Shown: positions 6,455 through 64,000, counted from the stretch's first letter. The stretch is DNA of 64,000 nt from Escherichia coli (GCF_050920415.1 NZ_CP169309.1), one strand, 5' to 3'. A program made the numbers and translations. The notes: generated by a model from the letters alone, not told the origin.

Positions 6455-9400
6455 TTATCCTTTAAAGCAACGGCGGATAACCACAAAGAACACCGGCACG
6501 AAGAAGATTGCCAGCAACGTTGCAGAGACCATCCCGCCCATTACCCCGATACCCACTGCGTTCTGCGCGCCACTGCCGGCACCGTTACTGATAGCTAGCG
6601 GTAATACGCCGAGAATAAAGGCGAGAGAGGTCATCAGGATAGGACGCAGACGCATACGTACTGCCACCAGTGTCGCTTCAACAACACCTTTACCCTCTTT
6701 CTCCATGAGATCTTTAGCGAACTCAACAATCAAAATAGCGTTTTTGGCCGACAAGCCAATTGTCGTTAGCAAGCCCACCATAAAGTAGACGTCATTTTTT
6801 TGATTAAAGAGTGTCGCCGCCAGTAGCACGCCGACAATCCCTAACGGCACGACTAACATAACCGAGACAGGAATTGACCAGCTTTCATAGAGTGCAGCAA
6901 GGCACAGGAAAACAACCACAAAGGAAATTGCTACCAGAGCGGGAGCTTGGTTGCCCGATAAGCGTTCCTGATATGACATACCCGTCCAGTCATAACCAAT
7001 GCCAGCTGGTAATTGTGATGCAAGGTTTTCCATCAACGCCATGGCATCGCCGGAACTGGTTCCTGGCGCGGCTTCCCCCTGAATCTCCATTGACGGCAGA
7101 CCGTTGTAGCGCTCCAGTCGCGGAGAGCCATACACCCAATGTGCAGTGGTAAAGGCAGAGAATGGCACCATTTCGCCGTTGGCGCTGCGGACATAAAGTT
7201 TATCGACATCTTCTGGCAGCATACGGAATTTGGCATCCGCCTGAACATACACCTTTTTCACGCGACCACGGTCAATGAAGTCGTTAACGTAAGTCCCACC
7301 CAACGCCGTTGAAATGGTCTGATTGATGTCAGAAAGTGAAACACCTAATGCCTGCGCCTTTTCCTGGTCAACTTCCAGTTTAAACTGCGCGGTGTCTTCC
7401 AGACCATTAGGACGCACGCTGACTAAGCTGGCAGGATGTTGCGCCGCCATGCCAAGCAACTGGTTACGGGCCTGGGTCAGGGCATCGTGACCCAGCCCAG
7501 CCTGATCAATTAACTCAAAGTCGAAACCCGTTGCCGTGCCCAGTTCAACAATGGCTGGCATATTGAATGGAATGACAAAACCGTCGCGGATCTTGCCCAA
7601 TTCCATTTTGGCACGATGGATTACCGCTTCCGCACTGTTTTCGTCACCACTACGCTCTTCCCACGGTTTCAGACTGACGAAAGCCATACCGGCGTTTTGT
7701 GCCTGGCCGCTGAAGCTAAAGCCGTTAACCGTAAAGACACTTTCTACGTTCGCTTTCTCGTTCTTCAGATAGTAATCCGTCACTTGATCCAACACTTTTT
7801 GCGTCCGCTCTTGCGTCGCGCCAGCGGGTAACTGAATCATAGTCAGAAAGACACCCTGATCCTCTTCAGGTAAGAAGGAAGACGGAAGACGTAAAAACAA
7901 CACCACCATTCCAGCAACAATTAGTGCATAGATCAGTAAATATCGTCCTGTGGAACCGAGGATTTTGCCGACGCTGTTGGTGTAGTGGTTAACGCTATGA
8001 TCGAAGGTGGTATTAAACCAGCCGAAGAAACCGCCCTTATTTTCGTGATGCTCAGCAGAGACGGGTTTGAGCAGTGTTGCACATAACGCTGGGGTAAGAA
8101 TCAATGCCACCAGAACAGAAAGCGCCATTGCCGAAACGATGGTGATAGAGAACTGGCGATAAATGGCCCCAGTAGAACCGCCGAAGAATGCCATCGGAAT
8201 AAATACCGCTGACAGCACCATCGCGATACCCACCAGTGCGCCCTGGATTTGCGACATTGATTTTTCCGTCGCTTCTTTTGGCGGGAGCTTATCCTCCATC
8301 ATCACGCGCTCGACGTTCTCCACCACCACTATCGCATCATCGACGAGCAGCCCGATGGCAAGCACCATCCCGAACATAGTTAGTGTATTGATGGAGTAAC
8401 CAAAAGCGGCGAGGATGGCAAACGTCCCTAACAACACCACGGGTACCGCAATGGTGGGGATCAGCGTTGCTCGCATATTCTGCAAGAACAGATACATCAC
8501 CAGGAACACCAGCATAATGGCTTCGAACAGCGTTTTTACCACTTCGTGAATAGAAAGCTGGACGAATGGTGTGGTGTCATAAGGGTAGAGAACCTTCATT
8601 CCCTGCGGGAAGAATGGCTGTAATTCCGCCAGTTTTGCCTTAATGGCTTTCGCGGTATCGAGAGCATTCGCGCCGGTTGCCAGCTTAATACCCAGGCCCG
8701 CCGCCGGTTTACCGTTGATGCGAGCGATAACGTTATAGTTTTCACCGCCAAGTTCAACCCGTGCGACATCTTTCAGGCGTACCACCGAGCCGTCACTGTT
8801 TACGCGCAGGGTCACTTTGCCGAATTCTTCCGGATTTTTTAACCGCGTCTGAGCAATAATCGAGGCGTTCAACTGTTGCCCTGGTAACGCTGGCGTTCCG
8901 CCCAACTGTCCGGCAGCGATCTGATCGTTCTGTACCTTCAACTGGTTAATCACATCAACCGGCGTCAGTTTATATTTGTTTAGCAGATCGGCGTCCAACC
9001 AGATACGCATCGCATACTGTGCGCCGAAAAGCTGTACATCACCGACGCCATTCAGACGGCTAAGCGTATCTTTAACGTTAGAGGCCACATAGTCCGAGAT
9101 ATCGTCCTGTGTGGTGCCTGGGTTATCAGAGACAAAGCCCGCCACCATCAAATAGCTGCTACTGGACTTTTCAACACTGATCCCCTGCTGCTGTACCTCC
9201 TGCGGCAGCAACGGCGTGGCGAGCTGGAGTTTGTTCTGCACCTGCACTTGCGCGATATCAGGATCGGTCCCGGACTGGAAGGTAAGGGTAATTGTCACGC
9301 TACCGGCGGAATCGCTGGTGGAGGACATATACATCAGGTTATCGATACCATTCATATTCTGTTCGATAACCTGCGTCACCGTATCCTGCACGGTCTGCGC

Positions 9401-9559
9401 ATCAGCGCCCGGATAGTTTGCCGAAACAGAAACCGCAGGCGGCGCAATGGTCGGGTACTGGGCGACGGGCAATTGTAGGATCGCCAGTGCGCCCGCCATC
9501 ATCAGAATAATGGCCAGCACCCATGCAAATATCGGTCGTCGAATAAAAAAGTTTGCCAT
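6455..9559 (-). CDS. acrF: RND multidrug efflux pump, inner-membrane transporter
   Basis: 1034 aa, [23 protein letters not shown]... typical AcrB/AcrF family; follows acrE. Confidence 0.95.
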
Positions 9560-9570
9560 GTCAGATTGCC

Positions 9571-10728
9571 TTACTTCGATGCAGTATCTGCGGGGGTATC
9601 GGTAGTGGCTTTAACCTGCTCTCCCGGACGCGCTTTTTGCAGGCCGCTGACAATGACTTGATCGCCAGATTTCAGCCCTTCGCTAATCAACCATTTATCG
9701 CCAATCGCCTGGCTGGCAACGACAGGGCGCGCTTCAACCTGACTTTTATCGTTAACAATCAGCACGGTAGCATCACCACGCGGTGTGCGACTAACGCCCT
9801 GTTGCGGGATAAGAATGGCGTCAGGTTGAACGCCTTCATCAATCCGTGCGCGCACAAACATACCTGGCAAAAGCGTATGTTGCGGGTTAGGGAAGACGGC
9901 ACGTAGGGTTATGGATCCGGTGCTTTCATCAACGGTCACATCGGAGAATTGCAACGTACCTTTCAGGGGATAGGTTTGACCGTTTTCCATGACCAACTCT
10001 ACGTTGCTGGTGGCGTTTTCCTTATGCAAATTTCCTTGCTCTACGGATTGCTTCAGCCTCATAAAGTCGTTGCTGGATTGGGTCACATCAACATAGATAG
10101 GATCGAGCTGCTGGACAGTCGCCAGTTCAGTCGTTTGCCCATTAGTGACAAGAGCGCCTTCGGTCACAGTAGATTTGCCGATACGTCCACTAATTGGCGC
10201 AGTCACTTTGGTATAAGCGAGATTGATGCGAGCGCTTTCGACCGTGGCTTTTGCGGCAATCACGGCGGCATCGGCCTGGCGAGCATCAGCAATGGCCTGG
10301 TCGTACTCCTGCTGACTGATGTATTTCGTACCCACGAGCGGAACGTAACGTTTTACCGTCAAATGCGCGATGGCGGCGGCGGCTTCACTTTTCGCCAGTT
10401 CGCCTTTCGCGCTGTCATAACTTGCCTGATAGGTCGCGGGATCGATCTGGTACAGAGACTGGCCTGCTTGCACATCGCTGCCTTCAGTGAAATTGCGACT
10501 CAGTACGATCCCGCTAACCTGTGGGCGAACTTCGGCTATACGGTAAGCATTGGTGCGGCCTGGTAATTCAGTCTTAACTTCTAACGGGGCCGTTTTCACA
10601 ATATGAACGGTAACCTGCGGTTCACCGACGTGAGCTTTCTCTTCTCCCTTATCGTTACAACCGGCGATTAAAGCCGCGGAGATCAGAATAAAGGAGGGCA
10701 GGAGGAAAAACCTGGCATGTTTCGTCAT
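9571..10728 (-). CDS. acrE: RND efflux periplasmic adaptor (membrane fusion protein)
   Basis: 385 aa with lipoprotein signal (LIAGC); acrE-acrF operon. Confidence 0.93.
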
Positions 10729-11126
10729 TACTATTCCTCAAAAAACCAAAAGCGCGTTATTTACCCAAAAAGGCAACGCGTTAACTCGCAGAAAGAAAAA
10801 TACAGTTCGCTATCCTACAAATTATCATTCGTCGATGTAAGGAATAGTTATGAATACTGGCGTCTCAAGGCACATAAACACAAAAAAAGATTAATATTCT
10901 ACTGTTTTATTTTGACGCGGGTTGAAAGAGGTAGAATCAAATCCTCGTAAATTGAAATATATATTGATAGAGTGAATGTATTTTAGGTAAATAATAAACG
11001 TTATTTATTTGACGATTTATAGCAACTCAATATTAGCCTCTCGTATAAATATACATTAGGTGATAGATTAACCTTCGCTATTTTCTCATCCTGTGTCGAA
11101 TATATTTATTTCCTGAATAATTAATC

Positions 11127-11789
11127 ATGGCAAAAAGAACCAAAGCTGAAGCCCTGAAGACCCGGCAAGAACTGATTGAAACTGCCATCGCCCAGTTTGC
11201 GCAGCATGGCGTAAGCAAGACGACGCTCAACGACATTGCCGACGCCGCTAACGTTACGCGTGGCGCTATCTACTGGCACTTCGAGAACAAGACCCAACTG
11301 TTTAATGAGATGTGGTTGCAACAGCCTTCATTGCGGGAGTTAATCCAGGATCACTTGACTGCTGGGTTAGAGCATGACCCGTTTCAGCAATTGCGTGAAA
11401 AATTGATTGTTGGCTTGCAATATATTGCCAAAATTCCCCGCCAGCAGGCGTTGCTGAAAATCTTATATCACAAATGTGAATTTAATGATGAGATGCTGGC
11501 AGAGGGAGTGATACGCGAAAAGATGGGCTTTAATCCGCAGACTCTCCGCGAAGTATTGCAGGCATGTCAGCAACAAGGTTGTATAGCAAATAATCTCGAT
11601 TTAGATGTTGTGATGATTATTATTGATGGTGCCTTCAGCGGAATTGTTCAAAACTGGTTAATGAATATGGCGGGTTATGATCTTTATAAACAAGCACCCG
11701 CACTGGTCGATAACGTATTAAGAATGTTCATGCCAGATGAAAACATAACGAAATTAATTCATCAAACGAATGAATTAAGTGGCATATAA
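11127..11789 (+). CDS. acrS: TetR-family repressor of acrEF
   Basis: 220 aa with N-terminal TetR HTH; divergent from acrE. Confidence 0.9.
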   Translation: MAKRTKAEALKTRQELIETAIAQFAQHGVSKTTLNDIADAANVTRGAIYWHFENKTQLFNEMWLQQPSLRELIQDHLTAGLEHDPFQQLREKLIVGLQYIAKIPRQQALLKILYHKCEFNDEMLAEGVIREKMGFNPQTLREVLQACQQQGCIANNLDLDVVMIIIDGAFSGIVQNWLMNMAGYDLYKQAPALVDNVLRMFMPDENITKLIHQTNELSGI

Positions 11790-13346: not shown

Positions 13347-14312
13347 TTACGCAAAATTTTCGAAGTATGCCTCCAACGCCTCCAGCTGTTCGCTGGCATC
13401 CTCAATGGCGTTGAATGTGCGCCGAAACTGGTCATTTGGAGCGTGTTCCTGGAGATACCAGGAAACGTGTTTACGTGCAATTCGGTACCCTTTTGCCGGA
13501 CCATAAAAGTCATGCAGTTCCCGAACGTGCGCGCAAAGCAAGCGCTTAACCTCTGCCAAAGGCAGCGGGGGCAGCAACTCCCCAGTGTCCAGATAATGCT
13601 GGATTTCCCGAAAGATCCAGGGTCTTCCCTGAGCTGCGCGGCCTATCATCAGGGCATCCGCCCCTGTATAGTCGAGCACAGCTCTGGCTTTAAGCGGGTC
13701 AGTAATGTCGCCATTCGCGATAACCGGAATGGAAACTTTCTGCTTAACTGCCCGAATACTGTCGTACTCAGCTTCTCCATTGAACAAACAGGCGCGTGTA
13801 CGGCCATGAATGGTCAGAGCCTGAATGCCACAGTCTTCAGCCAGTTGGGCAATCTCTTCGCAGTTACGGTGTTCCGGCGCCCAGCCGGTGCGAATCTTCA
13901 GGGTAACAGGAACGTCCACTGCATTGACGACCTCGGTAAGGATCGATTTAACGACATCCGGGTACTGCAAGAGGGCTGAACCTGCGAGCTTGCGATTCAC
14001 TTTTTTAGCCGGGCAACCCATATTGATATCAATAATCTGGGCACCGCTTTCCACGTTAATACGTGCTGCATCTGCCATTTCTTTCGGATCGCTACCAGCA
14101 ATTTGCACGGTGCGAATACCGGGTTCATCAATGTGCACCATCCGTAAACGAGATTTGTCGCTTTCCCAAACCTGTGGGTTAGAAGACATCATCTCGGATA
14201 CTGTCAATCCGGCTCCCATCTCGTAGCACAACGTCCGAAAAGGTCTGTCTGTAATGCCAGCCATGGGCGCTGCGATCAGGCGATTTCTGAGCTGATATTG
14301 TCCGATGCGCAT
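13347..14312 (-). CDS. dusB: tRNA-dihydrouridine synthase B
   Basis: 321 aa, [26 protein letters not shown]... Dus family; immediately upstream of fis. Confidence 0.95.
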
Positions 14313-14640
14313 GAGTTAAGAAATGACCATACTGTGACTGCAAGGCGGCGTATATTACGCATTTTTTGCACGAGATGAAAGGCCAAACTTTGACCAATCC
14401 TCTGAGATGGATCAAAGAATTGCATTTAAAATGAGCTTGGCGCGATAATTACTCATAAAAATCATTATATTAGAAAATAGTGACTAAAATTTACACTCCA
14501 AGAAATTTGAGTAAGTTCTCAATTTTTCTTTATGAATGAAAATTTTGGCACGCAAATTTGCGTAAATAATCGGCAAATTAACGTGCCTTTTGTGACCTTG
14601 CTCGCACTTCGCCTTGCGTCACCATACGGCGATGCGAAAG
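14313..14640 (-). promoter_or_regulatory. dusB-fis promoter/leader region (AT-rich)
   Basis: AT-rich region upstream of dusB; individual -10/-35 and Fis sites were not resolved by eye. Confidence 0.4.
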
Positions 14641-19156: not shown

Positions 19157-20133
19157 GAGTGGGTTCCGTACTCTTTGTTTAGTGTGATTGTGACAGGCGT
19201 TTCACCGCCGTCTGTAAAGCGTATGCCCCGACAGCTGTATGCATAGCGATAAATTCCAGCAGGCCGGGACGCCGGTCTATTTTGCCCCAGAGTGTCAATG
19301 TTAGACTTGACGGACATTGTGCAGCGATCTGCTGCTATCCTCCGGCAAAAAACAAAATATACCTTCGTTGCGCCAATGTCACCTTTTCCGCAGCGCAAAA
19401 ACTGCGTCAGGGAGGACGAGGTCGCACATTATAACGATTTCGTAGCAATTGGCAGCTAAATACTGGTCTTATCAGGGAAGATAATCAACAGCTAACATGT
19501 AAATAACCTTCAACACCGTGTAATTTGCAACAAGCCGCACAATTCACGAAATTAGCGCTATCGTCGACGGAACTTCTTATAACGTAAGGCTAAAAGCTGT
19601 AAAGCCAGCTCTGCGAAGATGAGGGGCTGCAATGAGATGATCCTCACAGACCACAAATAATGTAGGGATGTCAGGATCGCGGCAAGATAGACGACATTAC
19701 GCAGCGGTTGCTGGTGATTACTCAATTTTCACGGCATCGTCTGGATAAACGTGAATGCTAAAGCACGCAAAATCAACAAACTGACAATGCTCAGCATCAA
19801 ATACGTTCGAGTGGTTAATTTGTAGGCAAATAAAATCAGATTATTCACCCCATGGTACCAGAAATCAGTAACAGGTTAAGCGTAGCGTCGCCCAGGCAAA
19901 GCACCATAAACCTAACAGGCGACGGAGGCGTATCAATAATGGCTGTTTAGTGGAGTAACAGTGCGCATCAATTTATGGTCAGTCGAAATCATGACTTTCC
20001 AGTTTGGATGATGTTGTACAACTTCATGACCAAGATGTTCGACGAAAGCTGTCCGGCTAACCGCTTTTCCCGTTAACCGATTGAATAATGATTTCAAAAT
20101 GAGTTCCCTCTCTTATTAATCCTTGCTAAATGG

Positions 20134-55309: not shown

Positions 55310-56437
55310 TTAACGGCGTCTATAGCCTTCCTCTAGCACCGCTTGTGTTCGAACGAGTTCATCCGCGAGTCGTTTTTCATCAGGTAGTTGCATCTTATAT
55401 TCGCTTGCCAGAACGGTGTTAGGCAAACCAGCCAGTGCATAATGTGCTTCTCCGACTCCTTTTTCTGCACAGAGAACCAGACCGATGGGCGGATTTTCAT
55501 CCGGTAGCGTCCAGTGCTCTTTGGCGTAGTTGAGATACATATTCATCTGTCCGGCATCGCTATAGCTGAATTTGCCCACTTTTAGATCGACGATTAGCAG
55601 GCAGCGTAAACGGCGGTGGAAAAACAGCAGATCGACACGAAACCAGTTGTCATCAATGCGTAACCTTCGCTGTCGACCAACAAAGGCAAAATCATCCCCA
55701 AGTTCCAGCATGAAATCCATCAGGTGGTTGATCAGCGCCTCCTCAAAATCGGATTCTGAGTATTCATCTTTCAATTCCAAAAATTCGAGCACAAAGGGAT
55801 CGCGTATCGCCTGTTGCGGAAGAATATGCGTCTCGGCAGGGGCGTGTTGTTGCAGCATGGCTGATTTGTCATATGACAGTAGTGTCCGCTCATAAAATTG
55901 GGTCGCAATTTGCCGCTCTAGCTGGCGGACAGACCAACCACAGCGGAGCGCCTCTTTTTCATAAAAGCTGCGGGCGTCAGCGTTTTTAACGGAAAGTAGA
56001 CGGACGTAGGTGGACCAGGGCAGTGGGAAGGATTTGGCAGACAGCGTCTGCCAAATCTTTGCCGATGGGAATTCTGCAGACGGTGTCTGCGGAATTCCCA
56101 ATGGTGTTAATTCGCCAGACACTGTCTGGCGAATTTCAACATGTTGAAAAAAGAGGTAAAAAAGCCTCATTTGGCGTAAGTTTTTTGCAGAGAACCCACG
56201 CTTATACCTTAGACTTAAATCCTTTGAGAGCCGTTTGATAAGCTGTGCACCATAAGCCGCTCTGGCCTCGCCGCCTTGTTCAAATTCGACAATCCGTCGA
56301 CCAATTTCCCAGTATGTCGCGGTCATTAACGCGTTAACGCTACGTACCGTTTCCGTGCGGGCGCTATCGACCAGGTGAATAATACCGTCGTGGATTTGCT
56401 GGTAGCCTGCTGTGGTTCCTTCTGAGAGCGATTCCAT
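55310..56437 (-). CDS. yhcG: DUF1016-family protein with predicted PD-(D/E)xK nuclease fold
   Basis: 375-aa ORF; the motif LIVDLK resembles a PD-(D/E)xK core; contains three tandem 13-aa repeats encoded by DNA palindromes. Confidence 0.85.
   Translation of the reverse strand: MESLSEGTTAGYQQIHDGIIHLVDSARTETVRSVNALMTATYWEIGRRIVEFEQGGEARAAYGAQLIKRLSKDLSLRYKRGFSAKNLRQMRLFYLFFQHVEIRQTVSGELTPLGIPQTPSAEFPSAKIWQTLSAKSFPLPWSTYVRLLSVKNADARSFYEKEALRCGWSVRQLERQIATQFYERTLLSYDKSAMLQQHAPAETHILPQQAIRDPFVLEFLELKDEYSESDFEEALINHLMDFMLELGDDFAFVGRQRRLRIDDNWFRVDLLFFHRRLRCLLIVDLKVGKFSYSDAGQMNMYLNYAKEHWTLPDENPPIGLVLCAEKGVGEAHYALAGLPNTVLASEYKMQLPDEKRLADELVRTQAVLEEGYRRR
56026..56131. repeat. three tandem ~28-33 bp palindromes at ~39-bp period inside the yhcG coding region
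   Basis: GATTTGGCAGAC-AGC-GTCTGCCAAATC (56026..56053), GGGAATTCTGCAGAC-GGT-GTCTGCGGAATTCCC (56063..56095), AATTCGCCAGAC-ACT-GTCTGGCGAATT (56105..56131). Confidence 0.8.
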
Positions 56438-56596
56438 TATCTGTCCCTTTATATGGCGCTGCGTTGAATAATGGGATCAGCTATACGCCGGGCATCTGCC
56501 GGTAACAATCCAGGTGGGCTTGTTACATGGGTTTTCTTCACGTTATGCGAGGCGCTTTCCAGCAATTGTGCTGTAACGTTGTGCTGAAGATGAAGC

Positions 56597-56630
56597 AAAT
56601 AAAAAGGCCGGAGCGGGCGCATCCGACCAG
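56597..56630 (-). terminator. putative rho-independent terminator downstream of the vWA gene (end of five-gene operon)
   Basis: Minus-strand reading GGTCGGA-TGCGCCCGC-TCCGGCC followed by TTTTTATTTG; stem includes one G-U pair. Confidence 0.55.
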
Positions 56631-56635
56631 AATTT

Positions 56636-57805
56636 TCAGGAAGTTTCTCTTGCTGTCACTACGCCATTTTGCGCAGCCCACAGATTCACATCTTCCTTAC
56701 GAATGGCGGCGGCCATCATGCCGGGGAATAAATCAGGGGTACAGGCAAAGGAGGGAATACCCATGGCGGCGAGTTTTCCTGCCAGTGACCGGTCGTAAAA
56801 CGGTGCGCCTTCGTCGCTTAAGGCCAGCAGGGTAACCACCTGTACGCCGGACTGAATCAACTCACTGGCGCGTTGCAACAGATTGCGTTCCACACCACCT
56901 TCGTAGAGGTCGGAAATCAGCACCAGAATGGTATTACGCGGATCGCGAATCAAAGACTGGCAGTAACCTACCGCGCGGTTGATGTCGGTGCCGCCGCCCA
57001 GCTGCACGCCAAACAGCAGCTCTACCGGATCGTCGAGCTTCTCTGTCATATCAACCACTGCGGTGTCGAAAACCACCAGATGCGTTTTTACCGCCGGGAG
57101 CGATGCCATTACTGCGCCAAAAATACTGGAATAGACCACCGAGGAGGCCATCGACCCACTCTGGTCGATACATAAAATGATCTCCTTTTGCGTGCGTTGA
57201 GACTTGCGCCCGTAGCCGATTAACGTTTCAGGAACAATACTTTTGTACTCTTCCTGCCAGTGGCGCAGGTTGGCGCGAATGGTGCGCTGCCAGTCAATTT
57301 CCGCGTGGCGCGGGCGACGATTACGTACCGCACGATTAAGAGCGCCGCTTACCGCGCTACGCATTGGCTCTTCAAGCTGTTTCATCAATTGCTCGACAAC
57401 TTTACGCACCACAATCCTGGCGGTTTCTTTGGTTTTGGCCGGAATTACGCCATTCAGCGACATCAGCGTGGAGACCAGATGAACATCAGGCTGGACGTTT
57501 GCCAGCATCTCTGGCTCCAGCAACATACTGTGCAAATTAAGACGTTCAAAGGCGTCTTTTTGCATCACCTGAACCACAGAAGAGGGGAAATACTGGCGAA
57601 TATCACCCAGCCAGCGAGCGACTTTGGGTGACGATCCACCCGTGCCGCCGCGTAATCCATGTTTACCGTCTGGCTGATAGAGCGCCGCCAGCGCGGCATC
57701 AATCGCGGACTCTCTGGCATCCAGCGCCACGTTACAGGCATTGTCGGCATCTTCTCCAAGGATCAGACGCCAGCGGCGCAGCCGTTCCATCTCGTTACTC
57801 GACAT
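56636..57805 (-). CDS. von Willebrand factor type A (vWA) domain protein; last gene of five-gene operon
   Basis: 389-aa ORF with MIDAS-like motif D-x-S-x-S (ILCIDQSGSM) and downstream vWA-like hydrophobic strands; overlaps the upstream gene by 11 nt. Confidence 0.8.
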   Translation of the reverse strand: MSSNEMERLRRWRLILGEDADNACNVALDARESAIDAALAALYQPDGKHGLRGGTGGSSPKVARWLGDIRQYFPSSVVQVMQKDAFERLNLHSMLLEPEMLANVQPDVHLVSTLMSLNGVIPAKTKETARIVVRKVVEQLMKQLEEPMRSAVSGALNRAVRNRRPRHAEIDWQRTIRANLRHWQEEYKSIVPETLIGYGRKSQRTQKEIILCIDQSGSMASSVVYSSIFGAVMASLPAVKTHLVVFDTAVVDMTEKLDDPVELLFGVQLGGGTDINRAVGYCQSLIRDPRNTILVLISDLYEGGVERNLLQRASELIQSGVQVVTLLALSDEGAPFYDRSLAGKLAAMGIPSFACTPDLFPGMMAAAIRKEDVNLWAAQNGVVTARETS

Positions 57806-60044
57806 GATTTTCCCTTTCGTGTGGTGGCAAAGCCAGAATGCGGCGCAGTAGCGGCAGCATTAACGCGGCACGCTGTTCATCCCATATACCGCTGGTCTCT
57901 TCTTGCTGCGCGACACGCTCGCCCTGCGCGGCGCGTTCGCCTAACTGGCGGCGTTCCGGGCTGGAAAAACGGCCGAATGTCCGCCGCAGCATCGGCAGGA
58001 TCCGGGTGAAGTGATTGTCGTTCAGGCCGCTTAGCCAGGCATCGATCAACTGCCATAATTCGCTATTGTGCAGTAGCACCATCGCGCTGTCGTTGAGGAA
58101 ACCTTCCGCCCATGCGGCACTTTCCGCCGGGGGATTGGCTGGCGATAGCGCCAGGTTCATCAGCGTGGTGATCCGTTCTGTCGTTAACGTTTGCAGATCA
58201 AACAACAGGCGCGTCGCCGTTCCGCGAAGCAGCGCGTGTGCGGTACTGCCCTCTGCCAGCACCATCAACGCCTGCAACCAGCCCGCCAACAGATCTTCGT
58301 TATCCAGCAACCGCAGCGCGGCGTGAGCGTCGATAACTTTTTCTCTCATACTGGCGGCGCTGTCGTCGTTGAGCGCCGAACAGGCACCGGGTAGGGCGAT
58401 GGCGGCGCGCGGGGCGAGGCTCATCAGTACCTGCATTACCATACCAGAGTCGGTCTGGCGCACGTTGCCGTAGCGGACAATCGCCACCAGCGGTGCCAGG
58501 GCTTCCAGCAACTGTTCGATATTGCCCTGAGTGGCAGCCAGTGATTCCAGTGTATTGGCGATGGGGGCAATCGCGGCCTGTAAATCGGCCAGTAGCACTT
58601 GTTGGATAAGCTTTGCCAGTTCCGGCAGCGTGCTGGCGTATTGCGCCCTCACAATGGCATAGCGGGAGCTGGCCTGCTCAATGCTGTTACCCCAACGGCT
58701 GGCGGTAATGATGTTCATTGCCAGTGCCGGTTCCCAGCGCAGCGACCAGACTTCGTGGAACGTCCCTTTGCTGTTATTTCCTTGTCCAGCCAGACGGCCC
58801 CAGGAAATGTCGAGTAAGGTCAGGCGATGCAGTAAATGGCTACGCGCCAGATCGCCGGGTTTGCGCAGATCAAGATCCAGCACTTTTTCGCTGGCTTCTG
58901 CCTTCAGGCGCAGCGTTTTTTGCTGTTGCGTAATGTCGCGTTGGAGCGGCACGACGGGCGTATCATCCGGTACGCTTCCCAGCGCGTCGCCGACAATTAA
59001 CTTCTGGCGAATCATCTGCATTGGCGCGCTTTCGCCCATACACACTACGGTTTGCAGCGCTTCGCAAAGTTCGTCAAGCCCCGGCTGCGGGTGATGGCGC
59101 ATAATCGCCAGCGTCTGCGCCAGCCGCGCCGCTTCGATAATGTGGGCGCTGGAACAGTCGAGATCGGCTTCGCGAAACAGCCTTGCCGCGCGTGACAGCC
59201 AGCCGATATCGCGGTGAGAAGCGCCCTGATAACGCCACAGATGATCGTACCATTCCGGTGACACCACCCCTGCGCCATAACCGCTGGCGCGGCTTAACGC
59301 CTCGTAGCTCCAGGGCGTCCAGGCTGCCGCGACCTTGCACTTCGGCAAATTTTTCAGCAGTTCGTTATCATTCTTTGCGGGCGGCAGGTTTTCCAGCGCC
59401 GGAACGTGCCACGCACCGCAGACTACCGCGATGCGCGAGAAGCCCTCTTTTTTCGCCTGACGTAGCGTCTTGCGCATATACGCTTCACGCAGTTGATCTC
59501 TGGCTGAGTTTCGGGCTTCGGGAGTTGCCTGGCGTAGGGCAATCATCGCCTCGCGAATCGCCTCGAACAGAGACAAATCATCTTCGCGTTCCTCTACTCT
59601 GTGGCTCCACCAGCTTTCCCCATCGGTGTAACCGGCGGCGCGGCCCAGCCAGTCCAGCGGATCGCCGTCGGGACTGGCTTCAACGGCATCATCGTCATCG
59701 CTCTCTTTTTCGTCATCAAGCGCGAACTGATGACTGATGGGCAAGTCCATAAAGCGCACGGCGATATTTTGCTCAAAACCATAGCGCAGCGCCTGCCATT
59801 CCGGGGAGAACGCCGCAAAGGGGTAAAACGCGGCGTGATGTGAGTCGTCCGGGGCATAAATCAGTAGCGCGACCGGCGGTTGCATCTGTTCATGCTGCAT
59901 GAAAGGCAGGATGGATTCGCCGTCGGGCGGCCCTTCCACCAGCAGGCAGTCGGGCTGTAGCGTCTCCAGCGCCTTTCGCAGGCTGCGCGCGCAGCCAGGG
60001 CCATGGTGACGGATGCCAAACAAATGAACGGTTTGTTCAGTCAT
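57795..60044 (-). CDS. large uncharacterized protein (749 aa), Leu/Ala-rich helical; fourth gene of operon
   Basis: Long uninterrupted ORF with acidic stretch DDEKESDDDDAVEASPDGDP; no motif I can assign by eye. Possibly the DUF5682 family (from memory, unverified). Confidence 0.7.
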   Translation of the reverse strand: MTEQTVHLFGIRHHGPGCARSLRKALETLQPDCLLVEGPPDGESILPFMQHEQMQPPVALLIYAPDDSHHAAFYPFAAFSPEWQALRYGFEQNIAVRFMDLPISHQFALDDEKESDDDDAVEASPDGDPLDWLGRAAGYTDGESWWSHRVEEREDDLSLFEAIREAMIALRQATPEARNSARDQLREAYMRKTLRQAKKEGFSRIAVVCGAWHVPALENLPPAKNDNELLKNLPKCKVAAAWTPWSYEALSRASGYGAGVVSPEWYDHLWRYQGASHRDIGWLSRAARLFREADLDCSSAHIIEAARLAQTLAIMRHHPQPGLDELCEALQTVVCMGESAPMQMIRQKLIVGDALGSVPDDTPVVPLQRDITQQQKTLRLKAEASEKVLDLDLRKPGDLARSHLLHRLTLLDISWGRLAGQGNNSKGTFHEVWSLRWEPALAMNIITASRWGNSIEQASSRYAIVRAQYASTLPELAKLIQQVLLADLQAAIAPIANTLESLAATQGNIEQLLEALAPLVAIVRYGNVRQTDSGMVMQVLMSLAPRAAIALPGACSALNDDSAASMREKVIDAHAALRLLDNEDLLAGWLQALMVLAEGSTAHALLRGTATRLLFDLQTLTTERITTLMNLALSPANPPAESAAWAEGFLNDSAMVLLHNSELWQLIDAWLSGLNDNHFTRILPMLRRTFGRFSSPERRQLGERAAQGERVAQQEETSGIWDEQRAALMLPLLRRILALPPHERENHVE

Positions 60045-60061
60045 AGTGGTTGCCTTGCTGA

Positions 60062-61156
60062 TTACACAATTTCGCGGCAGGCGCGATAGAGATCGTTCCA
60101 GTCGCTGCGCTCTTTGACGATAGTTTCCAGATATTCACGCCATACCACGTCGTCCTGCACGGGATCTTTTACCACCGCGCCGATAAGGCTTGCGGCGATA
60201 TCCCGCGGATGCAGCACGCCGTCGCCAAAATGGCCCGCCAGCGCCATACCGTTGTTGATAACGGAGATCGCCTCCGCGGTGCTGAGAGTACTGGTTGGCG
60301 ACTTAATTTTCGTTTTGCCGTCAACCGTCAGGCCGTTTCGCAGTTCGCGGAAGATTTGCACGACTCGCTGGATCTCTTTAAGCGCTGGCGGTTTGGCAGG
60401 AAGTGCCAGCGCCTGACCCAGTTCGGCGACGCGGCGAGTGACAATGTTAATCTCTTCTTCTTCGCTGGCGGGTACGGGCAAAATGACCGTGTTGAAACGA
60501 CGTTTAAGCGCGGAAGAAAGCTCGTTAACGCCTTTATCCCGGTTGTTGGCGGTGGCGATAACGTTAAAGCCGCGCGTCGCCTGGACCTCTTCATTCAGTT
60601 CGGGGATAGGCAGCGTTTTTTCCGACAGGATCGTGATCAGCGTGTCCTGAACATCAGCAGGAATACGCGTCAGCTCTTCTACGCGTGCAATCTGCCCGCG
60701 CGCCATCGCCCGCATCAACGGACTTTCTACCAGCGCCAAACGTGACGGACCTTTAGAGAGCAACTCCGCGTAGTTCCAGCCATAACGCATTTGTTCTTCA
60801 CCGGTGCCTGCGGTGCCCTGAATAATTAACGTTGAGTCGCCGCTGATGGCAGCCGCCAGATGTTCAGATACCCAGGATTTCGCAGTGCCGGGTACGCCAT
60901 ACAACAGCAGTGCGCGATCGGTTGGCAGCGTGGCAACGGCGGTTTCGATAATCCGCCGGTTGCCGATATATTTCGGCGTGACCTCAAAGCCATTTTCCAG
61001 CTGCCCGCCCAACAGATAGGTGGCGACGGACCATGGAGAAATGGCCCAGTTTTCCGGGCGCGGATGAGTATCGTTTTTTTGCAGCTCATCCAGTTCTTCA
61101 GCAAATTGTTGTTCGGCATGTCGGCGTAAAACGGCGGCAGTAGCGGTAGCATTCAT
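60062..61156 (-). CDS. MoxR-like AAA+ ATPase (AAA_5-type); third gene of operon
   Basis: 364 aa; Walker A LLLYGVPGTAKSW; Walker-B-like IARVEEL followed by IPADVQDTLITILSE (compare MoxR/CbbQ hhhhDE..RAxPxVQxALLExMxE); ATGA overlap with upstream gene. Confidence 0.85.
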   Translation of the reverse strand: MNATATAAVLRRHAEQQFAEELDELQKNDTHPRPENWAISPWSVATYLLGGQLENGFEVTPKYIGNRRIIETAVATLPTDRALLLYGVPGTAKSWVSEHLAAAISGDSTLIIQGTAGTGEEQMRYGWNYAELLSKGPSRLALVESPLMRAMARGQIARVEELTRIPADVQDTLITILSEKTLPIPELNEEVQATRGFNVIATANNRDKGVNELSSALKRRFNTVILPVPASEEEEINIVTRRVAELGQALALPAKPPALKEIQRVVQIFRELRNGLTVDGKTKIKSPTSTLSTAEAISVINNGMALAGHFGDGVLHPRDIAASLIGAVVKDPVQDDVVWREYLETIVKERSDWNDLYRACREIV

Positions 61157-62757
61157 AAAGTGGTTTCTCCGACAAAAAGCGAATTAAGTTGAATTCGGTT
61201 CGCCAGCGCGGCGCTCAGGGCAGTAAAGGCTGCCTCGCAATAAGGCGTTTGTTGTGCGTCGTGCGGCCACTTGTCAATGACATCATTGAGGACTTCGGGG
61301 GCCAGCAGGCAGGCGAAATCACTCATCACATGGCGCAGGGCGTAGTCAAAGCGCGCGGAATCATATTTCACCCAACGGTGTAGCTCCGTGACCATTTGCT
61401 GGCTCAGGCGCAGGCTAAAGAGCGACGCATCCAGCGGTAACAGGCTGATGTAGCGATGTAAATGTTCGCCGCCCACCACTGAGAACAATGACCGTAACAT
61501 CGGCTCGTGTTCTTCTACAGGCAGACATTGCAAAAGCTCAAAGGCGTTAATCTTCACGCCTGCAGGATGATGAATGCTCATTCCGACGGGCAGCATGGCG
61601 AGAAACGCCTGCGCCCACTGCGGATTTTTTTCGCGCAGTACGGCGTGATACCAGGCGCGCAGTAGCGCCTTCTGCCAGTCGGTTTTCCCGGCCCAGCGCA
61701 GCAGTTCAACGGGGGTAGCCTGCAGTTGCGTTTGCCACCAGTCGAGCGGAACCGCTGCAACTATCTGATACAGCCACCATGCGCGCTGGCCCAACTTTTC
61801 GCCTTTGGGCTTAGTTTCTTCCAGCGCATCGGCCTTCCACTCTGGTAAGAACGCCTCCGGGGCATCAAGGGCGACGTGCAGCATTTTTTCTTTGCCGGAT
61901 AAGCCTTTTAGCCTTTCAAGTAAGGTCTCAGGAGCGGGGGATGAACTGAGCAACGGCGCTAACCGAGACTTCATGCGCGAGATCCAGGCGCTTTCCGGCA
62001 GACAACACAGTAACCGTGCCGCAGTTTGCCGCACCTCTTTGCTGCGATCGGATAATGTCTGTTCCAGAAAGGCTTCGTCGTGTTGGGAGATCTCCACTTC
62101 CAGCACAGCCAGCAGCTGTGCGCGTTCGCGGGCATCCAGCGAACTCATCTCCTGCGCCAGCCGATCGCGACCCTGTTCCGGGGCGCGAATGCGCATTTGC
62201 GTCAGATATTGCAGACGCTGTTCGGACGTGCCGTGCAGCCACATTTCTTCATCCAGCGGAGCGTCAACGGAGGCAAGAAAATAGCGCCAGTCGGCGTTAA
62301 TTTGCGCCAGCCAGCGCCCGCGAGCGCCGAGGACATTGGGCAGAATGCCGCGTATTGATGGATTTTGTACGCCGTAATTCAGCAGTGCCGGTAACAGCAG
62401 GGGCGGAGAAAGAAGCTGACGCTGGACCAGGTGATCAAGCGCTGACCACAGTAAACGCGGCGGCCCTTCTGCCAGCAACAGATGCAGCAGTCCCGCAAAA
62501 GCCGGGTTGTTTATTGGCTCGGCATTTTCTTTATCGATTTCCGGCAGCGGTGCGGGGTCAATCGCCTGCGGCACCCAGCCAGCCAGATGGCAGAGCGCCA
62601 GAACGCCCGCCGAGCGCAGTAGCTGTTGCTCTGCGGATGTGTTATTCGCCAGTTCAGACAGTAACAGCCCAATCTCACTTTGCGACGCCGACGGTGTGAA
62701 CGCTTTTTTGTCTGTGCCGAGTAGCGCTGTGCGGGTTAAATTTTGCCATTCGTTCAT
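61153..62757 (-). CDS. uncharacterized protein (~534 aa), Leu/Ala/Trp-rich helical; second gene of operon
   Basis: ORF 61153..62778 in the track; start chosen at the Met whose ATG forms an ATGA overlap with the SWIM gene stop (62754..62757). Possibly the DUF5691 family (from memory, unverified). Confidence 0.7.
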   Translation of the reverse strand: MNEWQNLTRTALLGTDKKAFTPSASQSEIGLLLSELANNTSAEQQLLRSAGVLALCHLAGWVPQAIDPAPLPEIDKENAEPINNPAFAGLLHLLLAEGPPRLLWSALDHLVQRQLLSPPLLLPALLNYGVQNPSIRGILPNVLGARGRWLAQINADWRYFLASVDAPLDEEMWLHGTSEQRLQYLTQMRIRAPEQGRDRLAQEMSSLDARERAQLLAVLEVEISQHDEAFLEQTLSDRSKEVRQTAARLLCCLPESAWISRMKSRLAPLLSSSPAPETLLERLKGLSGKEKMLHVALDAPEAFLPEWKADALEETKPKGEKLGQRAWWLYQIVAAVPLDWWQTQLQATPVELLRWAGKTDWQKALLRAWYHAVLREKNPQWAQAFLAMLPVGMSIHHPAGVKINAFELLQCLPVEEHEPMLRSLFSVVGGEHLHRYISLLPLDASLFSLRLSQQMVTELHRWVKYDSARFDYALRHVMSDFACLLAPEVLNDVIDKWPHDAQQTPYCEAAFTALSAALANRIQLNSLFVGETTL

Positions 62758-64000
62758 TGTGCGCCTCCGGTTGCCCAAATCACGCTACCGGCAAGCCAGG
62801 CGCTACAGGGCGTCAGCTGCTGACCATCCCATTCCCCCATTAGCATAAACGGCGCGCCGCCGCTGGCCGCCAGTAACCGCCAACCCTCGTCCGACGACAG
62901 GTGCGTCGGTAAGTGCTGGCCCTGTGTCGAGACGAATCGCCAGCCGCTCTCGTGCGGGTAAATCAATATTTCGCTTACTCGCAGCGGCAGAGGCCATTGC
63001 CAGGGATTCGCGCTAAGCCGCTGCGCCATGTCATGCAGCGCGTCCGGGAGGGGTAATTCTGCAAGCGGGAATCTTTCACCGCGGGTAAACGGCTCCACAA
63101 TCCGCGCCCGTAGCGGTGATGCGCCAGGGAAAAAGGCAAGCGCGCCCTGGCAGACTTGCCCGGTGATAAAGTGCTGGGGAAAGTTTTTACCACCGTGTGA
63201 ATAGTCCAGCAGTAGCGCGGTGCGGTGGCTCTTTTCTCCGTACAGCCAGACCCGGCGTCGCCACAGATTATTCTCTTCTTGCGCGCTTTGGCCTAAGACC
63301 TGCCAGTTATCAAGGCAGGTTAGTCCGTCAGCGATGTCATGTTTATCCGGGGTTATTCCCAATGCTGCATGGAGATCGCTAAGTTGTGCCGGGGATAACA
63401 TTTGTTGCTGGCGCCAGGCGTCAATAATCAGCTGTAGCTGCCCCAGTTCTTTGCACAGGCTCGATGGCCATACCTCGGCGGTAGTAAAAAGAGTGGTCAG
63501 ATTGTTCAGGCGAGCGGCAATTCCCGGTAGTTGAGCGTCGACCATGCGGGCGGCGATCCCGGCAAAAGGCAACTGTTGTGCAGAGATCTGCGCCAGACCG
63601 TGGCGGATCAGGTCGTGCATCCACTGTTCGAGGAAATCCAGCCCCGCCGTCATTTTTTGGTTGCGTGCCGCTTCCCGTTTGGCGGCAGCCTGCGGGTCGG
63701 CAGCTTTTGCCTCAGCCTGCTCTTTCTTTTCTTCTTTGCGAACCGCTCGCTGCTGGCGCGAGGTTAGCCACTCGCTTACCCATTCCGGCGGCTCGCCAGC
63801 GGTGAAACTTGCGGTGTGTTGCACCTGGAGCAAAAGCAACGCAAGGCTATGTTTACAGGGGAATTTACGGCTGGGGCAGGAACATTTACAGGCCAGATCC
63901 TGCCTGTCGACCCGTACCTGATAAGGGCGGGAGCCGCTGCCTTTACATTCTCCCCAGAACGCGGTCTCGCTATATCCCAGCGTCGGCCATTTTGCGGGGG
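62754..64000 (-). CDS. SWIM zinc-finger domain protein, 5'-truncated by the window edge; first visible gene of operon
   Basis: Hand translation upstream of the track ORF gives ...GECKGSGSRPYQVRVDRQDLACKCSCPSRKFPCKHSLALLLLQVQ..., a CxC-x(n)-CxH SWIM signature; no stop codon before position 64000, and the track ORF start is a TTG. Confidence 0.8.
   Translation of the reverse strand, partial: PAKWPTLGYSETAFWGECKGSGSRPYQVRVDRQDLACKCSCPSRKFPCKHSLALLLLQVQHTASFTAGEPPEWVSEWLTSRQQRAVRKEEKKEQAEAKAADPQAAAKREAARNQKMTAGLDFLEQWMHDLIRHGLAQISAQQLPFAGIAARMVDAQLPGIAARLNNLTTLFTTAEVWPSSLCKELGQLQLIIDAWRQQQMLSPAQLSDLHAALGITPDKHDIADGLTCLDNWQVLGQSAQEENNLWRRRVWLYGEKSHRTALLLDYSHGGKNFPQHFITGQVCQGALAFFPGASPLRARIVEPFTRGERFPLAELPLPDALHDMAQRLSANPWQWPLPLRVSEILIYPHESGWRFVSTQGQHLPTHLSSDEGWRLLAASGGAPFMLMGEWDGQQLTPCSAWLAGSVIWATGGAQ

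Follow-up and report, generated by a model that had tools for sequence, protein, structure and literature searches.

A five-gene operon of Escherichia coli encoding a YehL-type MoxR ATPase, a CoxE-type VWA protein and a large subunit with a predicted TIKI/TraB-like domain

Introduction

What kind of machine is encoded by five tightly packed genes that fill one end of a 64,000-nucleotide stretch of Escherichia coli DNA (NZ_CP169309.1; the whole stretch is referred to here as the window)? The genes, which we call the cassette, occupy positions 56636 to 64000 and a further 76 nucleotides (nt) on the minus strand. They encode, in order of transcription, a SWIM zinc-finger protein, a DUF5691 protein, a MoxR-class AAA+ ATPase, a DUF5682 protein and a von Willebrand factor A (VWA) protein. 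Few ATP-driven protein machines of bacteria are as widespread as MoxR-VWA pairs, and only a few of these pairs have a known job. A preliminary description of the window, made from the sequence alone, knew of no established function for this arrangement and suggested that it might be a paralogue of the yehLMPQ cluster of E. coli K-12. The first statement is borne out within the literature that we searched, NCBIfam and PADLOC. No paper was found on DUF5682, DUF5691, PF18934 or PF18944, and the searches returned nothing relevant on MoxR, SWIM and VWA proteins together or on MoxR and TraB together. An NCBIfam scan of the five proteins gave only generic AAA similarity (MadB, GvpN), far under the cut-offs.

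The existence of the cluster is not new; it is a 'known unknown', since its Pfam families and the YehL subfamily of MoxR proteins are already catalogued. What is new here is the assignment of a predicted TIKI/TraB-like domain, with candidate catalytic residues, to DUF5682 and of a predicted ZSWIM8-like module to the SWIM protein, together with the finding of a strict five-gene synteny over at least eight phyla without conserved neighbours and of a steep gradient of conservation between the five products. We propose tentatively, as a reading that we hold at somewhat below even probability, that the cassette encodes a self-contained hydrolase machine gated by ATP, with a probable role in conflict or stress.

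Results

The five minus-strand open reading frames (ORFs) were read directly from the window, where they fill 56636-64000. The preliminary description had claimed five genes coupled through two ATGA overlaps, one gap of 17 nt and one overlap of 11 nt, and direct reading confirms every junction. The stop codon of the SWIM gene and the start codon of the DUF5691 gene overlap in an ATGA at 62757..62754, and the DUF5691 stop and ATPase start overlap in another at 61156..61153. Because the first ATGA is common to the SWIM stop, we take DUF5691 to begin at MNEWQ and to be 534 residues long, in place of a 541-residue ORF that opens with TTG. A 17-nt spacer, TCAGCAAGGCAACCACT, with AAGG inside it, leads from the ATPase stop to the ATG of the 749-residue DUF5682 protein, whose gene overlaps the VWA gene by 11 nt (ATGTCGAGTAA, 57805..57795). 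The first gene leaves the window, as had been noted. Bases 56400-64000 are 100% identical to E. coli strain MFDS1022581 (NZ_CP169399.1), and in that genome the SWIM gene has its ATG 76 nt past base 64000, giving a product of 440 residues. The 361-residue SWIM ORF from TTG 63839 that appears in the ORF listing is, like the 541-residue ORF, an artefact of the rule by which the listing picks start codons; that TTG is not the start, because the SWIM motif lies upstream of it and the frame is open to the window end.

Downstream of the VWA gene there is a probable intrinsic terminator of the operon (56596..56628, minus strand), in which a hairpin, GGTCGGATGCGCCCGCTCCGGCC, is followed by TTTTTATTT (RNAfold, -14.2 kcal/mol). 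The hairpin and T-run lie about 8 nt past the VWA stop, and a simple terminator scan did not list the hairpin. A promoter scan found nothing beyond chance (6 sites against 3.7 ± 2.0 expected), and no Rfam element or riboswitch was found inside or upstream of the E. coli cassette. The five-gene operon is real, and its overlaps and conserved synteny imply that the genes are probably co-transcribed.

All five products fall into Pfam families, with which the RefSeq annotation agrees. The SWIM, AAA_5/MoxR and MIDAS-bearing VWA assignments made at the outset are right by Pfam, and the motifs on which they were based (SWIM CKCSCPSRKFPCKH, Walker A GVPGTAKS and the MIDAS, or metal ion-dependent adhesion site, DQSGS) are all present. 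The two genes that had been left as unknown encode DUF5691 and DUF5682.

How constant is this arrangement? A scan for DUF5682 in one genome per species gave at least 581 confirmed stretches. We kept 80 loci, from Proteobacteria, Cyanobacteria, Chloroflexi, Bacteroidota, Planctomycetota, Verrucomicrobiota, Deinococcota and Armatimonadota, and identified their genes by our own ORF calling with phmmer and hmmsearch. The co-occurrence of the five genes across genomes, which the preliminary description had proposed as a check, is strict in its order: the exact order SWIM, DUF5691, AAA, DUF5682, VWA, on a single strand, is found in 54 of the 63 loci with enough flanking sequence, in at least eight phyla, and the other nine are mostly accounted for by insertions or ORF-calling artefacts. 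Bilophila has the same five-gene order, while in a few genomes DUF5682 is alone or accompanied only by the VWA gene. When 644 flanking ORFs from about 80 loci were clustered, only generic families emerged, none of them at a fixed position beside the cassette, and the five genes look like a self-contained unit. In seven loci sampled from several phyla, no riboswitch was found within about 9 kb of the cassette and no regulatory RNA upstream of it. The DUF5682 family as a whole is very large, numbering 4,445 cluster representatives (50% identity) at E ≤ 0.001.

The five proteins differ widely in conservation. When each E. coli protein was compared with its counterparts in 59 loci, other phyla included, the median identity fell from 73.5% for the ATPase and 62.9% for the VWA protein to 46.8% for DUF5682, 37.3% for the SWIM protein and 30.2% for DUF5691, the fastest-evolving component. 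Since the five genes travel together, this gradient reflects differing constraint and not differing age. It fits a constrained motor with diversifying specificity parts, the putative motor and adaptor being almost frozen across phyla while SWIM and DUF5691 diversify. The E. coli ATPase is 72-75% identical to those of Bacteroidota, Chloroflexi and Planctomycetota (loci L026, L058, L045 and L074), compared with only 41% to its K-12 paralogue YehL. Such identity across phyla seems unusually high for an accessory gene.

Several loci depart from the common pattern. Locus L090 (10001-15895) has DUF5682 and VWA genes followed by genes for a 132-residue protein and a 690-residue WD40 protein, with no adjacent ATPase. 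In L088 (2749-9441), where a short first gene of 198 codons takes the place of SWIM, a SIR2_2 gene, an integrase and fragments of DnaB are found nearby. Two Proteobacteria have insertions of about 4-5 kb within the cassette (L029, 4700-8998, and L032, 1552-6366), which separate ATPase from DUF5682 in one case and SWIM from DUF5691 in the other. DUF5682 stands alone, at about 9000-11300, in two cyanobacteria (Calothrix, Acaryochloris) and one member of the Cytophagales (L008, L022 and L057), the other four genes being absent within 9 kb; its partners may be encoded elsewhere or absent. In Ktedonobacter racemifer (L058), a HEARO RNA (RF02033, 125.7 bits; 14130-14376, minus strand) lies about 1.6 kb downstream of the cassette and is probably an unrelated mobile element.

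The large subunit is DUF5682 (57795..60044, minus strand; Pfam E = 7e-268). In a confident predicted model, its N-terminal approximately 250 residues (window about 59295-60044) have the fold of the TIKI/TraB/ChaN/erythromycin-esterase superfamily, an α/β fold with a parallel β-sheet core. The rest of the model is a helical bundle followed by helical repeats, and the C-terminal two thirds match HEAT/ARM-type repeats. Eleven residues are invariant in 68 sequences, YehM among them, that share only 24-77% identity: G10, R12, H13, H14, E37, E82, D100, R186, E187, G210 and H213. They include the motifs G10-x-R12-H13-H14, E37 and G210-x-x-H213, together with R186/E187. In the model, H13/H14, E37 and H213 are placed just past strands 5-11, 33-36 and 204-210, respectively; the set formed by these residues and R186 is located either just past strands or on the preceding helix. 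TIKI enzymes have a 2His/2Glu catalytic set close to strands of their parallel sheet core and, nearby, a conserved arginine (PMC6254334), and the predicted arrangement of H13/H14, E37, H213 and R186 in DUF5682 parallels this set. We regard the fold assignment, made from the predicted model, as sound, and catalytic competence as plausible. No paper joining a TIKI-like domain with a MoxR system was found in our literature search. A relationship between DUF5682 and CoxF, prompted by the likeness of RHHGPG to the phytase motif RHGxRxP, was also considered and was rejected because CoxF resembles XdhC and the fold of DUF5682 is TIKI-like.

The ATPase (60062..61156, minus strand; 364 residues; Pfam AAA_5 E = 2e-38) is of the AAA_5/YehL type, and its operon carries a VWA gene two genes downstream. 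It is closest to YehL; its sequence matches in the PDB are to the AAA modules of midasin (E = 1e-16) and to NorQ. Its Walker A motif (residues 87-94, window 60875-60898) is kept as GxPGTAKS (≥95%) in 63 homologues. At the Walker B position (60674-60685) the same homologues have an invariant R-[VIL]-E-E, with Glu-Glu in place of the Asp-Glu of the canonical hhhhDE. K-12 YehL likewise has Glu-Glu (FEE), and this form of the motif is probably functional. The VWA protein (56636..57805, minus strand; 389 residues) is of the CoxE type (Pfam VWA_CoxE E = 3.6e-52). Its MIDAS sequence DQSGS (residues 214-218, window 57152-57166) is followed by GGGTD and by SDxxEGG (SDLYEGG), and the MIDAS residues are conserved in 65 homologues.

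The two most variable proteins are encoded first. The SWIM motif of the first (62754..64000 within the window, minus strand; Pfam SWIM E = 1.2e-6) lies at 63890..63849 and has the CxCx(n)CxH zinc-binding signature. Beyond the SWIM module, the predicted model shows a long helical hairpin and bundle, and then two C-terminal β-rich domains. Its top structural match is ZSWIM8, taken from the complex of ZSWIM8 with CUL3 and AGO2; ZSWIM8 acts as a substrate receptor. The β-rich domains give many weak matches to tandem OB-fold nucleic-acid binders (LEF-3, RPA, HIN), none of them significant, with no Foldseek match at E ≤ 0.001. For DUF5691 (61153..62757, minus strand; Pfam E = 4e-121), the family profile gives a weak match in the PDB to alphaRep/HEAT proteins (E = 0.005), from which we take, on weak evidence, that HEAT-like repeats occupy at least the segment around residues 185-265. 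Beyond this weak match, PDB sequence searches with DUF5682, DUF5691, SWIM and VWA yielded nothing of use, whether made with single sequences or with profiles.

Where does the cassette sit in E. coli? It lies between gltD and yhcG, beside the nan operon, where K-12 presumably carries gltF-yhcADEF. At least 80% of its length is present in 33 of 5,426 complete E. coli genomes (0.6%), with 97.7-100% identity in the 15 best-matching genomes. E. coli SMS-3-5 has it at the same site, and Klebsiella huaxiensis (L087, 5961-13439) has the same gene order at the equivalent gltD/nanQ site, with a DUF5682 that is 77% identical. This shared location suggests an old insertion or exchange within the Enterobacteriaceae. 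Directly downstream of the cassette is yhcG (window 55310-56437, minus strand), which encodes a PDDEXK-nuclease/DUF1016 protein. At this position in SMS-3-5 (L085) only a DUF1016 gene fragment remains, with two hypothetical genes, so that the junction beside the cassette is variable. The remainder of the window is ordinary core genome; between accB and acuI, the RefSeq annotation has a pseudogene, truncated, for a haem-binding subunit of the YedZ/MsrQ-like kind (19547-19937, minus strand).

Discussion

How might the five products act together? With the domain identities, operon structure, synteny, fold assignments and conservation pattern as observed, we infer the following for complex formation, hydrolase activity, the direction of control and the biological role, using characterised MoxR-VWA pairs as the analogy (PMC7159879, PMC9976466, PMC4240915). 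The five products would form a single ATP-driven machine belonging to the YehL branch of MoxR-VWA systems. The AAA_5 ATPase would be its motor ring, by analogy with NorQ-NorD, CbbQ-CbbO, midasin and the three-subunit chelatases, and the CoxE-type VWA protein would be the adaptor of the ATPase, gripping a partner through its MIDAS site. The partner that is remodelled or gated would be the large subunit of the cassette itself, DUF5682, whose TIKI/TraB-like domain, with its invariant His/His/Glu/His and Arg, is a probable hydrolase, most likely a peptidase and possibly an esterase. Two fast-evolving components, the SWIM protein and the HEAT-like DUF5691 scaffold, would choose or sense the target.

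An accessory role in conflict or stress, as opposed to the maturation of a dedicated enzyme, is suggested by three features taken together: the lack of conserved neighbours or a client gene, the patchy distribution in E. coli, and the up-regulation of the paralogues yehL and yehM in hns/stpA mutants (PMC3686432). A bolder version of the proposal, which we consider improbable as it stands, is that the cassette represents an unrecognised and widespread machine for receptor-guided, ATP-gated proteolysis and serves as a new system of anti-phage defence or conflict. Recognition of a foreign or damaged target, possibly a nucleoprotein, would be the task of the SWIM and HEAT-like proteins, after which the MoxR-VWA pair would switch on the TIKI-like peptidase DUF5682. 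If it were true, the YehL/yehLMPQ subfamily would gain a function; if the role were defence, a new and common system would be added. The hydrolase idea, should it hold, would provide the first link known to us between a TIKI-type enzyme and a MoxR-VWA motor. A set of 'DUF' annotations becomes a testable model, with H13, H14, E37, H213 and R186 as candidate catalytic residues, a constrained motor and adaptor, and two diversifying targeting subunits.

A number of observations weigh against a gated hydrolase with a role in conflict or stress. The TIKI assignment of DUF5682 rests on fold plus motifs: none of the 68 family members has a Pfam TraB, ChaN or Ere match, and the sole hhalign alignment with the E. 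coli YbaP (TraB) family, while it sets the GxxH and Glu in register, is not significant (E = 0.33, with a shallow YbaP alignment of 65-82% identity). The first Glu of the E-x-H motif of RRSP is an arginine, R12, in DUF5682, and ChaN and PMT show that a TIKI-type fold can be non-catalytic. The very high conservation of the ATPase would fit a housekeeping machine too, and the neighbours of the cassette in E. coli and Klebsiella are housekeeping genes. The cassette occurs on 44 of 72,556 plasmid records, most of them from very large replicons, and in one phage record, being essentially absent from phages; it is not phage or plasmid cargo, given this rarity. Nor did PADLOC-DB 2.0 (2023) give a match: four of the proteins had no hit at all, and the ATPase had only P-loop-level similarity to IetA (E = 0.0017-0.0034, about 28 residues).

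Could the cassette instead load a metal or cofactor, as CoxD-CoxE, NorQ-NorD and the I/D/H chelatases do? The His/Glu cluster of DUF5682 would then bind a metal or tetrapyrrole in the way that ChaN binds haem, and the motor and VWA protein would load it into a client protein or small molecule. The CoxE family of the VWA protein, the similarity of the ATPase to NorQ, the ChaN fold and a chelatase-like lid all speak for such a role. We nevertheless judge it unlikely, since no client enzyme, metal transporter or biosynthetic gene is a conserved neighbour of the cassette in about 80 loci, no riboswitch was found within about 9 kb in the seven sampled loci or at the E. coli locus, and the cassette is confined to 0.6% of E. 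coli genomes; two fast-evolving subunits, SWIM and DUF5691, would also be left unaccounted for. Alternatively, the cassette could be a general remodelling or quality-control chaperone, comparable with midasin on pre-ribosomes or RavA-ViaA on respiratory complexes. Its TIKI-like domain would then be a non-catalytic binder, and the SWIM and HEAT-like proteins would bring in a cellular complex, possibly a nucleoprotein, to be assembled or taken apart with the use of ATP. That the best PDB sequence matches of the ATPase are the midasin modules, that the C-terminal half of the SWIM protein weakly resembles tandem OB-fold nucleic-acid binders, that ATPase and VWA are extremely conserved over phyla and that the flanks in E. 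coli and Klebsiella are ordinary housekeeping genes would all agree with it. The OB-fold likeness is not significant, however, and the invariant His/Glu/Arg set, kept in 68 sequences with only 24-77% identity, YehM among them, exceeds the needs of a passive binding domain. A housekeeping role is also hard to reconcile with presence in so few E. coli genomes, and a chaperone of this kind likewise seems doubtful to us.

Membership of an anti-phage or conflict system that has already been described, either the MoxR-vWA ternary systems or an IetAS-like pair of ATPase and protease, is very improbable. It could appeal to a weak Pfam bpMoxR match in the ATPase (E = 0.0011), to the PADLOC IetA matches (best E = 0.0017) and to two variant loci, L090 with its WD40 protein past the VWA gene and L088 close to a SIR2_2 gene and an integrase. 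The IetA matches are weak, however, and below the per-stretch threshold over their short length, and Pfam scans of the five proteins found no VMAP, inactive STAND, FtsH or β-propeller-VWA fusion. The paper that defines the ternary systems (PMC7159879) mentions neither SWIM nor YehL. The ATP-gated hydrolase remains the reading that we put forward, with the reservations given above.

How does the cassette compare with known systems? The MoxR-vWA ternary systems are defined by a third component, which is VMAP, iSTAND, FtsH or a β-propeller (Kaur et al. 2020, PMC7159879). Like them, the cassette is self-contained and joins a MoxR-VWA pair to further conserved components; unlike them, it lacks all four of the defining third components, and its VWA protein carries no fused effector domain that could be recognised. 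That VWA protein may share the CoxE-type N-terminal region described for the iSTAND systems. The same combination of a MoxR ATPase and a VWA_CoxE-family protein is seen in the CoxD-CoxE(-CoxF) system, by which Oligotropha carboxidovorans matures the CuSMoO2 cluster of its CO dehydrogenase. A membrane association is described for CoxD and CoxE (PMC4240915). The cassette differs in having no coxMSL genes or XdhC-like CoxF nearby and in its additional DUF5682, DUF5691 and SWIM proteins; the E. coli copy lies in the gltD/yhcG region and not in a cox cluster, and no family recurs beside it in about 80 loci. NorQ-NorD, CbbQ-CbbO and midasin share with it the AAA_5 family of the ATPase and the logic of a MIDAS-bearing partner. 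They act on nitric oxide reductase, Rubisco and pre-60S particles, respectively, whereas no client is encoded or conserved near the cassette, whose invariant Glu-Glu in Walker B further sets its ATPase apart from theirs.

For two of the cassette proteins the nearest comparisons are structural. DUF5682 shows no homology to the TIKI/TraB/PrgY/GumN/ChaN/erythromycin-esterase superfamily (TIKI1, RRSP, EreB/C, YbaP) by Pfam or by profile-profile statistics, and it is unlike these proteins in that its domain is joined to a helical bundle and repeats of about 500 residues and is encoded inside a MoxR-VWA operon. The likeness of the SWIM protein to ZSWIM8 is similarly one of structure only, at 9% identity, and no cullin, ubiquitin or E3 component is encoded in the cassette.

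The closest relative is the yehLMPQ cluster of K-12. YehL is one of the seven MoxR subfamilies in the classification of Snider and Houry, and a paper that cites this classification (PMC3893208) gives no role for it. The paralogy suggested in the preliminary description stands for three of the proteins: the ATPase and YehL share 41% identity over 350 residues (E = 7e-78), DUF5682 and YehM, in which all the catalytic-type residues are kept, share 27%, and the VWA protein and YehP share 37%. In both clusters these three genes are adjacent and are accompanied by a gene for a SWIM-containing protein. The paralogy does not extend to the remaining components. The SWIM protein can be aligned with YehQ (614 residues) at the zinc finger only, and for DUF5691 no yeh counterpart was detected by sequence comparison or hhalign. 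The idea that DUF5691 or the SWIM C-terminus might represent part of a split YehQ was rejected, hhalign showing no relation, although a single-sequence target makes this a weak test. A +1 frameshift cassette has been reported in yehP (PMC2790909) and is absent from the VWA gene here, where the corresponding site (window 57000-57010 region, codons around RAVGYCQS) reads GTA GGT TAC TGC CAG T. The gene order also differs, being ATPase, DUF5682, VWA, SWIM in yehLMPQ and SWIM, DUF5691, ATPase, DUF5682, VWA in the cassette, so that four genes in the one order, with a YehQ-type SWIM protein, stand against five in the other. We conclude from these sequence comparisons that the cassette is a five-gene paralogous variant of the YehL-type MoxR system, distinct from the yehLMPQ cluster itself.

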